A DNA stretch of 64,000 bases from an uncultured Oscillospiraceae bacterium (lineage in GTDB: Bacteria; Bacillota; Clostridia; Christensenellales; CAG-138). Numbering within the stretch: the first letter of the stretch is position 1; every line of letters starts with the position of its first letter. The stretch covers positions 18,859 to 82,858 of the forward strand of contig CAYPKG010000001.1 in the NCBI GenBank assembly GCA_964411275.1, given 5' to 3'. A model generated the notes under the pieces. That model saw only the letters and a list, made by a program, of their open reading frames with translations. It did not search any database and had not been told where the DNA came from. The position numbers were made by a program, and so were the translations under genes. Below are positions 3,215-23,732 of the stretch, piece after piece.

Positions 3215-4747
3215 TCATGCCGGATTAAACCGATACCGGATTTTGATCCTCTGGTATTTCAGGCCATCTTTATAATGGCCTTGGGAAATCTCGATTTTGT
3301 CCACGCAGGCCGCCAAAATGGCGGGTGTCAGGGCGGCAAGGGGGAGGGGGAGCGCCATTGACAAATCACACTCTGGGGCGGGCGGCGTGAGAAGGGTTAT
3401 CTTTGCATTTAAGTCCGCCTGCTCCGCCTGAAACCTTCTGAGCAGTTGAAGAAATTGCGCTTCCTCCAATTGTCCGCCGATGCGATCCTCATACAAGCGC
3501 TCCACGATGCGTTCCACCCGGCGCAAGCGCTCAAGGAGCTTACCTCGGGCGGCATCGCCGGTTTTGCTTTGGGCGGTTTGATCCGCTTGGGAAAGGGCCC
3601 GCCGCTCCCGGTCGCTGGGCGCAAGCAGTACATTCAGCTCTTGTAGCACAACCTGGTACAGGGCATCATAATCCATGAAATGATTGCTGCATGCATCCCG
3701 GCCGTTGAGCTTATACTGTCCGCATGCGAGATTATACCGGGCGCCCTTTTTGTTGGAGGCGCTCAGCGACATGGCGCGGCCGCAGTCCGCGCAGAAAACC
3801 AGCCCAGCGAACACATTTTGAAACGTACCCTTTGCCGGACGCCTGCGCACACCCACCGCCCGCCTTGCCCGGTCGAACAAGGCTTGGCTTACGAGGGGCG
3901 TATGCATATCGGGCACCACAATCCAATCCTCCCGGGGCTTACGTTTTACCTGAGGGCTTTTGAAGGAAAGCTTCGTGGTTTTTCCCTGGACGATGTGACC
4001 AAGGTACACGGGGTTTCTGAGTATTTTAGCCACGCCGGTTCCTGTCCAGCCAGCGTTGGCTTTTACAGGAGCAGCCGGCCCTCCCGTGACAGCCCGATAC
4101 TGTAGCGGCGGCAGAATGCCCCGAAAGTTTAAATCCCCCGCGATTTCCCCGGTGGTGCGCCCGTTCGCTGCCTGCTGAAATATATCCAGCACCACTGCCG
4201 CAGACAAAGGGTCGGGCATGAGCTGATTTTTATTTTCCGGATTTTTTTGATAGCCGTAGGGGGCAAAATTGCCGATATAGGCGCCTTCCAGCATCTTTGT
4301 GCGCAGGGCGCTGCGGATTTTTTTTGACGCGTCCCGGGCGTACAGCTCGTTGACGATGTTTTGAAAAGGCGCAAGGGCCGTGCCTGGGCCCTCTGTGTCA
4401 AAGCCGTCGTTTACGGCGATGACCCGCACCCCTTTGTCGGGAAAATATAGCTCCGTATACTGTCCGGCGGCGATATAGTCCCGGCCCAGCCGGGAAAGAT
4501 CCTTTGTCAGCAGCAGATTGACCCGTCCGGCTTCAACATCACGAATGAGCCTTTGCCAGCCGGGCCGGTCAAACGTGGTGCCGGAATAGCCGTCGTCCAC
4601 GTATTCTTGATACACCAAATAGCCATGCTGCGCGGCATAAGCCTGGAGCAGGGCGCGCTGGTTTTGAATGCTTTCGCTTTCGCCCCCCGCATCGTCATCT
4701 TTTGACAGGCGCAGGTAAAGGGCGGCACGGTATGCTTGTGGCATCAT
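3215..4747 (-). CDS. Large serine recombinase (resolvase/invertase N-terminal domain, recombinase domain, zinc-ribbon)
   Basis: Begins MMPQAYRAALYLRLSKDDDAGGESESIQNQR...YVDDGYSGTTFDRPGWQ...LLLTKDLSRLGRD, with the catalytic Ser in the YLRLS motif. A Cys cluster (FCADCGRAM...LACGQY...CSNH) and a coiled-coil tail follow. The start was moved from the track ORF (4846) to the internal MM at 4747. Confidence 0.9.
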   Translation of the reverse strand: MMPQAYRAALYLRLSKDDDAGGESESIQNQRALLQAYAAQHGYLVYQEYVDDGYSGTTFDRPGWQRLIRDVEAGRVNLLLTKDLSRLGRDYIAAGQYTELYFPDKGVRVIAVNDGFDTEGPGTALAPFQNIVNELYARDASKKIRSALRTKMLEGAYIGNFAPYGYQKNPENKNQLMPDPLSAAVVLDIFQQAANGRTTGEIAGDLNFRGILPPLQYRAVTGGPAAPVKANAGWTGTGVAKILRNPVYLGHIVQGKTTKLSFKSPQVKRKPREDWIVVPDMHTPLVSQALFDRARRAVGVRRRPAKGTFQNVFAGLVFCADCGRAMSLSASNKKGARYNLACGQYKLNGRDACSNHFMDYDALYQVVLQELNVLLAPSDRERRALSQADQTAQSKTGDAARGKLLERLRRVERIVERLYEDRIGGQLEEAQFLQLLRRFQAEQADLNAKITLLTPPAPECDLSMALPLPLAALTPAILAACVDKIEISQGHYKDGLKYQRIKIRYRFNPA

Positions 4748-22633: not shown

Positions 22634-22648
22634 TTCGCCAATGGATGC

Positions 22649-22676
22649 AAAGCTCCGGGAAATCCCGGAGCTTTTA
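22649..22676 (+). terminator. Rho-independent terminator after rpsI
   Basis: AGCTCCGGG (22651-22659), loop AAAT, CCCGGAGCT (22664-22672), then TTTT. Confidence 0.8.
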
Positions 22677-22896
22677 TGCCATCGACAAAGCCTTGGCTTT
22701 GTCGATGGGGTCACTGCGGTGGGTTTTCCATGCAGCTGCGACCTCGGACGATTGCATCGTCTGTCGGTCTTGCCCCATGCAAGGTGTCAAAATCACCGCG
22801 CATGTCGCTGATTTTGACGGATTTTACTCCAACCACTGCATCTTTTGAAAGGGCAAAATGGCGGGGCATTTTGCCACTTACTTTGTTGGTGGTCTG
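22677..22896 (+). other. Hairpin-dense non-coding segment (candidate structured RNA or palindromic element)
   Basis: Four strong hairpins: 22679-22708 (12 bp), 22740-22769, 22786-22818 (10 bp) and 22852-22875 (9 bp). There is possible long-range pairing between 22712-22722 and 22841-22850. No ORF here has an RBS. Confidence 0.3.
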
Positions 22897-22929
22897 AAAG
22901 CTCCGGGATGTTTCCCGGAGCTTTCTTTT
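22897..22929 (+). terminator. Second terminator, with a stem identical to the one at 22649-22676
   Basis: AGCTCCGGGA (22899-22908), loop TGTT, TCCCGGAGCT (22913-22922), then TTCTTTT. Confidence 0.7.
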
Positions 22930-23031
22930 GCCTGGGCCCGGGAACATATTGAAGCGAATGGGTTCTATACGCTACTCTCATTTTGTGTTTGGCCATAGGA
23001 TATGGTACTATACTGGGCAGGAGTGATTACA

Positions 23032-23619
23032 ATGGATTGCCAAAAAATCGGGCGGCTGATCGCTGGCTTTCGCAAGGAACAGGGCTTGACGCAGCAGAAC
23101 ATGGCGGACGCCCTCAATATCAGCAACAAAACCGTGTCCAAATGGGAATGCGGCCTTGGCTGCCCCGATGTTTCCCTTTGGCCGGAGCTTTCCGTAATCC
23201 TGGGCGTGGACATGGCCCAGATGCTGGAAGGGGAGATCACGAAAAACCGTCCCGACGCCGGAAACATCGACAGGGTAAGGTTTTATGTGTGCCCCACCTG
23301 CCAAAATGTATTGACGAGCACGGGCAGCGCCTCCATATTCTGCTGCGGGCGCAAGATGGAGGCCCTCATCCCCAAAGATAACGCCCCAAGGACACAGGCT
23401 CTGTTCTCGGACGGGGAGTATTACATCACAATCGATCACGAGATGAATAGGGCGCATTACATTCTTTTCGCCGCCTTTGTCAAAAGCGACCGCGTGTACT
23501 TGCGGCGGATGTATCCCGAGCAGGACGCGGCGGTGCGTTTTCCCTTGGAGCACGGCGGAAAACTGTACCTTTACTGCGTTAGCCACGGGCTGACGGCCCA
23601 AGCTTTGGACTTGCCATAG
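23032..23619 (+). CDS. XRE-family HTH protein fused to a desulforedoxin-like Cys4 motif and a superoxide-reductase-like (desulfoferrodoxin) domain (195 aa)
   Basis: N-terminal HTH_3 (IGRLIAGFRKEQGLTQQNMADALNISNKTVSKWECG). Then FYVCPTCQNVL-x-FCCGRKM, a CxxC...CC pattern. Then IDHEMNRAHYILF...YPEQDAAVRF...YLYCVSHGL, which I align by eye to the SOR segments HPMEEKHYIEWI...KPGDAPEAEF...EYCNLHGHW. RBS GGCAGGAG. Confidence 0.7.
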   Translation: MDCQKIGRLIAGFRKEQGLTQQNMADALNISNKTVSKWECGLGCPDVSLWPELSVILGVDMAQMLEGEITKNRPDAGNIDRVRFYVCPTCQNVLTSTGSASIFCCGRKMEALIPKDNAPRTQALFSDGEYYITIDHEMNRAHYILFAAFVKSDRVYLRRMYPEQDAAVRFPLEHGGKLYLYCVSHGLTAQALDLP

Positions 23620-23732
23620 GGGCCAATTACCCGCTATAATTGTATGGATCATTATTTGCCCAGGAGGAATGCACAAGTCCAAGCAATATCATCCGGGTTT
23701 GAATTACAAGGCTTAAGCGAGAAAGGAAAGAC

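Follow-up and report, generated by a model that had tools for sequence, protein, structure and literature searches.

A candidate XRE-type transcription factor with a partly degenerate superoxide reductase module from an uncultured Oscillospiraceae bacterium

Results and Discussion

The C-terminal half of a 195-residue protein encoded by an uncultured Oscillospiraceae bacterium is homologous to the 2Fe superoxide reductases (SORs, or desulfoferrodoxins), albeit in a partly degenerate form, and follows an N-terminal DNA-binding domain of the XRE type. This fusion is real, its architecture has been known since 2011, and the family that carries it is large and uncharacterised. The reading preferred here, at a probability of roughly one half, is that the protein is an XRE-type transcription factor in which the degenerate 2Fe-SOR serves as effector and dimerisation domain, functioning as an iron- or redox-controlled switch and not as an enzyme. 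The gene was analysed within a stretch of 64,000 nucleotides, referred to throughout as the window, and its features are as follows.

23032 to 23619, + strand: complete open reading frame of the HTH-Dx-SOR-type regulator, 195 aa plus stop (ORF list and sequence)
23032 to 23226, + strand: XRE/HTH_3 DNA-binding domain, aa 1-65 (Pfam HTH_3; AlphaFold2 model)
23227 to 23268, + strand: flexible linker, aa 66-79 (AlphaFold2 pLDDT)
23269 to 23355, + strand: desulforedoxin-like domain, aa 80-108 (aligned to desulfoferrodoxin residues 3-30)
23356 to 23616, + strand: SOR-like beta-sandwich, aa 109-195 (HMMER alignment to 2ji2; Foldseek)

Domain architecture and homology to superoxide reductase

The initial annotation placed an HTH_3 domain at residues 1-65, and Pfam confirms this assignment with a match of HTH_3 (PF01381) to aa 13-62 (E 4.7e-9, 36.6 bits vs a cut-off of 23). 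The domain forms five helices in the AlphaFold2 model and has SNKTVSKWE as its recognition helix; Lys33, Ser36, Lys37, Trp38, and Glu39 are invariant among 85 homologs, and the cysteines of the domain, Cys3, Cys40, and Cys44, are clade-specific. In the linker that follows, pLDDT values are 58-64 in the residue blocks spanning 61-80 and fall below 50 at residues 70-73.

Homology of the remainder of the protein to 2Fe-SORs is supported by both profile and structural comparisons. The NCBIfam model TIGR00320 matches aa 81-187 over profile positions 4-121 of 125 (E 2.2e-6). A phmmer search of the PDB recovered the D. baarsii SOR (2ji2/1vzg) at E 1.5e-4, and a profile built from the family did so at E 4.4e-10. 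The AlphaFold2 model (pLDDT 88) aligns in Foldseek with 1dfx/2ji2 at E 1.3e-9 and TM 0.70, with an rmsd of 2.9 Å over 121 columns and a sequence identity of 23%; the top Foldseek matches of the SOR-like part are 2Fe-SORs. The by-eye alignment to SOR on which the original proposal was built is thereby borne out, and the structure prediction suggested as its check returned the 2Fe-SOR fold. In Pfam, PF06397 reaches 13.3 bits, below its curated cut-off of 23, and PF01880 gives no match in the window protein. Because these desulfoferrodoxin domains fall below the cut-offs, the protein carries no name in databases beyond 'helix-turn-helix domain-containing protein'.

Centre I of the 2Fe-SORs is an Fe(Cys)4 site with the motif C-x2-C-x15-C-C, and centre II is formed by four histidines and one cysteine in the pattern (E)(K)H...H-x5-H...C-x2-H (PMC11980386). 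The desulforedoxin-like CxxC...CC arrangement that had been pointed out in the window protein is indeed present and aligns with desulfoferrodoxin; it reads C87-x2-C90-x13-C104-C105 (codons 23290-92, 23299-301, and 23341-46), with a spacer two residues shorter than that of the enzymes. Centre II is incomplete. His136, His142, Cys182, and His185, the four of five ligands originally proposed to be retained, coincide with the enzyme's HPMEEKH and C-N-I-H motifs in the HMMER alignment to 2ji2. The fifth ligand, which is the first His of the motif, is missing together with the other two residues of the EKH loop, Glu and Lys, and APRTQ aligns in their place. In D. baarsii numbering, the four remaining ligands are presumably His69, His75, Cys116, and His119.

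The window protein thus shares with the 2Fe-SORs of D. baarsii (2ji1/1vzg) and D. desulfuricans (1dfx) the fold, a Dx domain joined to an immunoglobulin-like SOR domain, the Cys4 centre I, and the motifs H-x-M-x3-H-Y and Y-C-x2-H-G, but differs from them by the added N-terminal HTH and by a loop that is eight residues shorter and lacks the Glu, the Lys, and the first His. Without the catalytic Glu/Lys/His loop, the protein is most sensibly read as having a non-catalytic role, in agreement with the initial annotation. In overall layout, the protein resembles the HTH_3-cupin regulators (PuuR, 1y9q), in which an N-terminal HTH_3 domain and a linker likewise precede a C-terminal beta-rich effector, although that effector is a cupin rather than a module derived from Dx and SOR. 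Whole-chain Foldseek matches to regulators of this type have E values of ~1e-4, with an rmsd of at least 13 Å over the whole chain.

The HTH-Dx-SOR family and its putative metal ligands

The combination of an HTH with an SOR module was initially regarded as an unusual design. The architecture itself, however, was listed in 2011, when SORGOdb (Lucchetti-Miganeh et al., PMC3116461) defined a class HTH-Dx-SOR of 19 proteins. No function, operator, or regulon was given for the class (PMC3116461), and SORGOdb was the sole mention of the architecture found in the literature, with no characterised HTH-SOR fusion. The domain order of the class, HTH followed by a desulforedoxin-like and then an SOR-like domain, is that of the window protein. 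SORGOdb collected its entries on the presence of an SOR active centre II (PMC3116461), and the class is defined accordingly, whereas the window protein has four of five ligands and lies under the Pfam cut-offs. From the architecture, rather than from a comparison with the 19 founding sequences, the class would appear to be the family of the window protein.

A genome scan detected the family in at least 589 species, most of them Clostridia; among the cultured carriers are Faecalicatena contorta, Robinsoniella peoriensis, Lacrimispora defluvii, Alkaliphilus transvaalensis, and an Anaerotignum sp. Members with E <= 1e-30 form 183 clusters at 50% identity. The four cysteines of centre I are kept in all 75 genome homologs and in 75 of the 81 representatives of 50%-identity clusters. 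Such a Cys4 site could also be a structural zinc site, a point that runs counter to the preferred reading.

Conservation of centre II is more graded. Among the 75 genome homologs, His136 is present in 100%, His142 and Cys182 in 96% each, and His185 in 83%; all five ligands are found in 38 and four in 24 more. About half of the members therefore have the complete site, the window's clade has four of its five ligands, and other members have lost it, with His142 replaced by Asp or Asn and Cys182 by Ser in the degenerate members. Since some members have a degenerate centre II, a switch based on that site cannot be the family-wide mechanism. The initial annotation also took the EKH segment to be absent, which holds for the window protein but not for the family: its loss is restricted to the window's clade, where no loop His is found, and most other members keep (D/E)-x-H, the residue directly before the loop His being rarely Lys. 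Cys40 and the loop His are associated (25/28 vs 17/47, counted without regard to phylogeny).

A conserved operator and its candidate regulon

The family is associated with a conserved candidate operator, TCTAC-N5-GTnnA, a 15-bp imperfect palindrome that directly abuts the -35 hexamer and has its arm centres 10 bp apart. The family loci, 902 kb in total, contain 62 sites scoring 15 bits or more, compared with 4-6 in shuffled sequence. The operator lies upstream of the regulator gene or its operon in 54 of 74 loci, and several further loci have weaker versions at the same place. Its distance from the ATG is fixed at about -66, it adjoins promoters resembling TTGxxx-17-TATAAT, and its arms co-vary, as in TCCAC..GTGGA at one locus (L049) and TCTAC..GTAGA at another (L087). 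The co-occurrence suggests that the HTH-Dx-SOR family itself binds this element, another factor being conceivable.

Among 170 distinct operator sites, the downstream gene is the regulator itself in 100. The others include the genes of an operon encoding a GIY-YIG-like protein (p117), DUF6530, and an AAA+-vWA protein (p117/DUF6530/AAA_5-vWA, behind 22-29 sites), members of the CAT family (19), flavodoxin-like reductases (6), and Mef-like MFS transporters (3), and some operator-preceded target genes occur in loci that have no regulator gene. The p117 operon is the cargo of an integrative mobilisable element and shows 84-98% DNA identity across families. Searches of this operon with PADLOC and PHROGs recognised no known defence system; they returned a weak match of p117 to GIY-YIG homing endonucleases and CobS/CobT-like matches of the AAA+-vWA protein. 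A literature search for DUF6530 yielded nothing.

The presence of the operator at the family's own promoters and before other genes supports a role as transcription factor, and thereby gives independent backing to the regulator function first proposed for the window protein. The proposed context of oxidative-stress or iron sensing did not fare as well, as no iron homeostasis or classic ROS-defence genes are linked to the family, and neither rubrerythrin, SOR, nor flavodiiron genes were seen behind the operator. The gene set instead suggests a response to xenobiotics or redox-active drugs more than a classic oxidative-stress defence.

The same gene set raises the possibility that the protein senses a small molecule, such as a drug or xenobiotic. 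The desulfoferrodoxin module would then be a dimerisation and ligand-binding scaffold in which any metal is only structural: the Cys4 site would form a zinc or iron knuckle, the former centre II pocket would bind an organic effector, and no iron redox chemistry would take place. The resistance-like genes behind the operator (CAT family, Mef-like MFS, and flavodoxin-like FMN reductase) are consistent with this, as are the carriage of the operon on a mobilisable element, the nearly universal Cys4 alongside partial loss of the centre II ligands, and the C-terminal fusions of some family members to DUF2087 or to TipAS, an antibiotic-recognition domain. However, retention of five ligands in 38 of 75 homologs and of four in 24 more would be difficult to account for if no metal were bound, the adjacent-cysteine desulforedoxin arrangement is exactly retained, and there is no known ligand. 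A small-molecule sensor is accordingly regarded as a tentative alternative, appreciably less probable than an iron- or redox-controlled switch.

Genomic setting of the window copy

The regulator gene of the window sits between rpsI and miaB, and three features precede it.

22896 to 22925, + strand: terminator-like hairpin and T-run, 106 nt 5' of the open reading frame (terminator scan; inverted repeat I5)
22949 to 23011, + strand: stretch with the sole hand-picked promoter candidates and no family operator (sequence reading; PWM scan)
23020 to 23023, + strand: Shine-Dalgarno GGAG, 8 nt 5' of the ATG at 23032 (read from the sequence)

The GGAG at 23020-23023 favours a start at 23032 over an upstream in-frame ATG at 23002, and the resulting N-terminus, M-D-C, is invariant in close homologs. 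Because the hairpin separates rpsI from the open reading frame, the gene probably has a promoter of its own. Two candidates were picked by hand, TTGAAG (22949-54)-18-TACTCT (22973-78) and TTGTGT (22983-88)-17-TGgTACTAT (23003-11); the promoter scan upstream of the open reading frame called nothing and reported neither of them. Rfam searches of the structured upstream region and of the window as a whole matched no family. Upstream similarity to relatives is limited to the RBS-proximal ACTATACT...GGAG stretch, and alignment of the region with the 3' end of the relatives' AAA+-vWA gene was not convincing.

A PWM scan of the 64-kb window found no family operator of at least 15 bits. Four hits reach 10 bits, none of them in 22949..23011, and the best (14.5 bits, position 3498) is no better than expected by chance; the segment 22930-23031, which had been put forward as an autoregulatory EMSA target, lacks the family operator. 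Nor did tblastn detect in the window any of the operon partners or any CAT, flavodoxin-like, DUF2087, or p117 gene. The window copy is therefore an orphan, having neither operator nor partner genes within 64 kb, and its targets must lie elsewhere.

This isolation could mean that the gene is a remnant with little or no function, a copy detached from the mobile operon and drifting between rpsI and miaB. All of its closest relatives (72-74% identity) are found in the four-gene operon, from which the window copy is set apart by the missing partners and operator, and the promoter scan called nothing upstream of it. Its first SOR strand is unusually divergent (RTQALF vs KITVEE in relatives), and a relative with a 71% identical MutS has no regulator gene before miaB. 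Yet the open reading frame is intact, has a good RBS, and retains every family-invariant residue. The GC content of the gene is in line with that of its surroundings, so it is not a recent insertion. Moreover, the exact protein sequence recurs in several samples (protein P0001, 100% identical, on 4-5 public contigs). Loss of function thus appears improbable.

Least probable by far is that the HTH tethers an active superoxide reductase to DNA, localising the working enzyme there or enabling its autoregulation: SORGOdb does file the architecture among SORs (PMC3116461), and about half of the family has the full His4Cys set with an acidic residue at the second position ahead of the loop His, but none of the EKH residues, the loop His included, is present in the window protein, Lys rarely precedes the loop His elsewhere, TIGR00320 scores 27.9 bits against an equivalog cut-off of 146.9, and the operator and target genes point to a specific transcription factor.

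A putative iron- or redox-controlled switch

On the preferred reading of an iron- or redox-controlled switch, the XRE-type regulator is probably dimeric, and the desulfoferrodoxin-like module would hold two HTH domains in register for the palindromic operator. The oxidation or occupancy state of the putative iron centre(s) would alter DNA binding, such that an oxidant or redox-active compound could switch the regulon through them, and the window protein would not itself be a superoxide-detoxifying enzyme.

A more specific proposal draws on SoxR. In non-enteric bacteria, SoxR is a MerR-family [2Fe-2S] sensor of redox-active compounds, with a MerR-type HTH and a C-terminal CX2CXCX5C [2Fe-2S] motif. 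The HTH-Dx-SOR family might be its iron-based counterpart in anaerobic Firmicutes and some spirochaetes, an idea that is speculative and, as it stands, rather unlikely. Oxidised desulfoferrodoxin-type iron would then switch binding to TCTAC-N5-GTnnA, the trigger being either the redox-active antibiotics or xenobiotics themselves or the superoxide or oxidants to which they give rise. The regulon so controlled would be partly mobile, comprising the CAT-family acetyltransferase, the Mef-like pump, the flavodoxin-like reductase, and the GIY-YIG-like/DUF6530/AAA+-vWA operon. In the window's clade, one of the HTH cysteines beside the recognition helix, Cys40 or Cys44, might serve either to complete the iron site or to sense it, which would couple the metal state directly to DNA binding.

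The likeness to SoxR is an analogy of working only, namely that both would be iron-centre regulators responding to redox-active drugs, with few target genes, these being for efflux pumps and for reductases or modifying enzymes. The DNA-binding folds are unrelated (MerR vs XRE), the metal centres differ, and the SoxR operator lies in the -35/-10 spacer, whereas that of the HTH-Dx-SOR family is upstream of the -35 hexamer. The window protein is not a member of the SoxR family: it has no MerR match, its HTH is HTH_3, and its cysteines are arranged as CxxC-x13-CC.

Regulators named in the literature on oxidant sensing by anaerobes include PerR, Rex, sigma-B, and the Spx-like OseR. OseR is a C. difficile repressor of the Spx/YusI family that senses O2; neither it nor TrtA of Treponema denticola, a 104-aa XRE protein without a desulfoferrodoxin module, is related to the window protein.

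Implications

The window copy itself is of lower value, being a degenerate orphan whose targets were not located in the window. How obligate anaerobes detect oxidants and redox-active drugs is understood only in part. In this family, a transcription factor seems to have gained its sensor domain by taking over a whole enzyme module, that of desulfoferrodoxin. The operator and candidate regulon open the family to direct tests, such as EMSA on a defined 22-mer (candidate operator DNA 5'-AACTCTACGGAGCGTTTATTGA-3'), spectroscopy, and mutants. As part of the regulon resembles antibiotic-resistance cargo on mobile elements, the family could matter for the regulation of resistance in gut Clostridia.

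Domain architecture of the regulator

The XRE-type HTH that the initial annotation placed at the N-terminus of the window protein was recovered by Pfam (HTH_3, aa 13-62, E 4.7e-9), whereas for the desulfoferrodoxin part of the proposal the Pfam model Desulfoferrod_N stayed below threshold (13.3 bits; cut-off 23) and Desulfoferrodox gave no match. The ORF was delimited as follows:

23020-23023, + strand: Shine-Dalgarno-type GGAG ahead of the regulator ORF
23032-23619, + strand: regulator ORF, 195 aa

Since the N-terminus M-D-C is invariant across the close homologs, the start was placed at 23032; use of an alternative in-frame ATG, at 23002, would lengthen the protein by ten residues.

Both HMM and structure comparison yielded significant similarity to SOR and desulforedoxin. 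Profile positions 4-121 of the 125 in TIGR00320 (NCBIfam) align with aa 81-187 (E 2.2e-6), phmmer against the PDB matched the Desulfoarculus baarsii enzyme (E 1.5e-4), and a profile built from 85 homologs matched 2Fe superoxide reductase (E 4.4e-10). In the AlphaFold2 model (pLDDT 88) residues 67-77 form a flexible linker, and the top PDB matches are the 2Fe-SORs 1dfx, 2ji2 and 1vzg (Foldseek E 1.3e-9, TM 0.70), with an rmsd of 2.9 Å over 121 columns. The window protein is thus homologous to the whole 2Fe superoxide reductase, and the fusion is real and significant.

The ligand alignment previously made by eye proved correct in every point. HMMER alignments pair the centre-I (desulforedoxin-type) cysteines with Cys87, Cys90, Cys104 and Cys105. 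In centre II, the SOR His4Cys site, the enzyme's HPMEEKH motif and its C-x2-H motif are matched by His136, His142, Cys182 and His185 (His69, His75, Cys116 and His119 in D. baarsii numbering). The absence of the EKHVP segment was likewise borne out: the region is eight residues shorter than in the enzyme and reads APRTQ, so that the Glu-Lys-His (EKH) loop with the first His ligand has no counterpart. The first SOR strand is also more divergent (RTQALF, against KITVEE in relatives); all family-invariant residues are intact. The window protein shares the fold and centre I with the 2Fe-SOR enzyme family, but scores below its cut-offs and lacks the full centre-II motif.

Conservation of the metal ligands

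Ligands were counted in 75 genome homologs and in 81 near-full-length cluster representatives.

Conservation of metal ligands (genome homologs; cluster representatives)
Centre I, four Cys: 100%; 75/81, with CCCH in five more
His136: 100%; 71/81
His142: 96%; 51/81, with Asp or Asn in 23
Cys182: 96%; 47/81, with Ser in 16
His185: 83%, with Asp in eight; 36/81

These counts establish centre I as a universal feature of the family. Roughly half of the family has a complete centre II, and the other members retain part of it or have lost it. All five ligands occur in 38 of the 75 genome homologs, and four occur in a further 24, the window's clade included. Met138 is invariant in all 75. Loss of the EKH loop is clade-specific. 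Most homologs carry (D/E)-x-H-x-(I/L)-x-(V/I)-E at the position of the enzyme's E-K-H-V-P-V-I-E, as at locus L059, which reads D-E-K-H. The residue directly before the loop His, Lys in the enzyme's EKH, is rarely Lys in the family.

The window's clade has additional cysteines in the HTH domain, Cys3, Cys40 and Cys44, the latter two within WECGLGCPD, which replaces the common WERGxxxPD and substitutes Cys40 for the usual Arg:

23149-23151, + strand: Cys40 codon of the regulator ORF
23161-23163, + strand: Cys44 codon of the regulator ORF

By counts that ignore phylogeny, Cys40 is found in 25 of 28 homologs lacking the loop His versus 17 of 47 possessing it, an association that could reflect compensation or plain shared ancestry. 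BLASTP with the N-terminal domain of 434 repressor places these cysteines in the loop that follows the recognition helix; in the structure of 434 repressor this loop is close to both the DNA and the dimer contact.

A conserved, predicted operator and its candidate regulon

The upstream regions of the homologs have in common aaCTCTACGGAGCGTttATTG, located about 66 nt 5' of the ATG, an imperfect palindrome of the form TCTAC-N5-GTnnA. Its right arm directly adjoins a TTGxxx hexamer, with a TATAAT-like hexamer 17 nt further (TTGACG-17-TATAAT at locus L071), which puts the operator at about -36 to -50. Its two arms co-vary, as in TCCACGGACCGTGGA at L049 and TCTACTGATCGTAGA at L087. With a threshold of 15 bits, a PWM detected 62 sites across 902 kb of family loci, compared with 4-6 in shuffled sequence. 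Such a site occurs in 54 of 74 loci, just 5' of the regulator gene in 30 and at the start of an operon ending in it in 24; several others show a weaker copy of 12-15 bits at that position, and an exact-pattern scan of metagenome contigs added at least 120 operator loci. The invariance of K33, S36, K37, W38 and E39 in the recognition helix fits the conserved operator. The co-occurrence of family and operator, the standard inference of comparative genomics rather than proof, points to the operator as the predicted binding site of the family. The near-consensus promoters would suggest repression, but activators more typically bind upstream of -35, as would be the case here.

The tally of downstream genes covered 170 distinct sites scoring 16 bits or more. 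The HTH-Dx-SOR gene lies behind 100 of these and is the first gene in 79, while p117 (small and GIY-YIG-like), DUF6530 and a CobS/CobT-like AAA_5+vWA protein are encoded behind 22-29. Genes for CAT-family acetyltransferases (PF00302), for which fusion to DUF2087 is common, follow 19 sites, those for flavodoxin-like FMN reductases six and those for Mef-like MFS transporters three. Loci with the operator ahead of stand-alone target genes were:

L092, L098, L117, L119, L140, L153, L168: operator 5' of stand-alone CAT-family genes
L122, L176, L188: operator 5' of flavodoxin-like FMN-reductase genes
L011, L013, L014, L028: operator 5' of Mef-like MFS genes

Such loci often have no regulator gene, as expected for a trans-acting factor. 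Together these genes form a candidate, resistance-like regulon. With its acetyltransferase, efflux pump and flavin reductase, the set looks like a response to drugs or xenobiotics; genes for rubrerythrin, SOR, flavodiiron proteins or iron uptake were not seen behind the operator sites. The exact operator string also lies just 5' of NqrC-like genes on metagenome contigs without a regulator gene (L139, L144, L185, L192), probably by coincidence or in a different context.

A mobile four-gene operon

One type of operon encodes all of the window protein's closest relatives (72-74% identity), in the order p117 (114-123 aa), DUF6530, AAA_5+vWA (~680 aa) and HTH-Dx-SOR, with the operator at its start:

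L013, 3062-6597: four-gene operon
L214, 3072-6636: four-gene operon
L208, L210, L213 and others: four-gene operon

Its DNA is 84-98% identical across members of the Lachnospiraceae, Oscillospiraceae, Clostridiaceae and even Cohnella, and at L214 it sits between relaxase/MobC genes and an integrase. The operon is therefore recently mobile cargo, and its L214 flanks suggest an integrative mobilisable element as the carrier. PADLOC matched it to none of its known defence systems.

Distribution of the family

A word-indexed search returned 772 homologs at E <= 1e-3, of which the best 120 are all ~195 aa long, 64-75% identical to the window protein and named at best 'helix-turn-helix domain-containing protein'. 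An exhaustive profile search (E <= 1e-30) resolved the family into 183 clusters at 50% identity, and a pattern scan in which each species was represented by a single genome detected a relative in at least 589 species; those among the matches listed are mostly Clostridia, with Treponema, Sphaerochaetaceae, Eggerthellaceae, Cohnella and Tumebacillus. Some longer homologs carry an extra C-terminal domain: a clear TipAS antibiotic-recognition domain in P0172, a weak TipAS match in P0177, DUF2087 in P0183, and an LCM-type methyltransferase in P0140 that could be a gene-fusion artefact.

The design is therefore not the unusual one-off suggested by the initial annotation, because SORGOdb had catalogued it in 2011 as class 'HTH-Dx-SOR', with 19 proteins (PMC3116461), and it is widespread. 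The architecture is thus known, yet uncharacterised: apart from SORGOdb, no paper in the literature searched described a member or used the term. TrtA and OseR, also considered, are unrelated to the window protein.

Mechanism and the window copy

In the best-supported reading, the window protein would be a dimeric XRE-type transcription factor whose desulfoferrodoxin-derived module acts as dimerisation unit and metal-based switch. It would not be an enzyme, since the loop His is missing along with the Glu and Lys of the EKH motif, in line with the earlier non-catalytic proposal. 2Fe-SORs are homodimers and the operator is palindromic, both consistent with a dimer. The closest functional analogy, offered as analogy only, may be SoxR of non-enteric bacteria. 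The main alternative pairs a metal site of structural role alone with an organic effector. The resistance-like character of the regulon, the fusions to TipAS and DUF2087, and a centre II that has decayed in part of the family would favour this alternative; against it, 62 of the 75 genome homologs keep four or five of the centre-II ligands.

The window copy might, with lower probability, be a functionless orphan. Unlike its relatives it is solitary, between rplM-rpsI and miaB-ylbF-mutS, with no partner or target genes of the family within the 64-kb window and no operator there, the top match (14.5 bits at 3498) lying inside a coding region at chance level. Its GC content is normal, and a relative with a 71% identical MutS has no regulator gene ahead of miaB. 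MutS similarity places the host among uncultured Clostridia, with Eubacteriales and Christensenellaceae bacteria (66-69%) as top named matches. The 400 nt separating rpsI from the regulator gene contain:

22649-22674, + strand: terminator-like hairpin
22896-22925, + strand: terminator-like hairpin

A promoter scan reported no promoter between the second hairpin and the regulator ORF, where two weak candidates were picked by hand, and a terminator scan found none 3' of the gene.

The two hairpins are near-identical and belong to a structured stretch (22634-22935, + strand). The hairpin arm AAAGCTCCGGGA has four exact copies in the gap, against 0.59 expected window-wide at up to one mismatch, and the ~220 nt between the hairpins have very strong predicted RNA folding, with an MFE of -145.7 kcal/mol (shuffles -97.9 +/- 4.9, z -9.8). 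The stretch has no Rfam match; it could encode a novel structured sRNA, serve as a leader or attenuator, or have arisen by MITE-like insertion. A near-consensus, promoter-like TTGCCA-18-TATAAT (11/12; 23611-23640, + strand) overlaps the final codons of the regulator ORF and is probably the miaB promoter.

An active SOR tethered to DNA is unlikely.

The operator, candidate regulon, mobile operon and clade-specific loss of one iron ligand were not found in the literature searched, and they make the family testable. It is the family that merits experiment; the window copy is a degenerate orphan.
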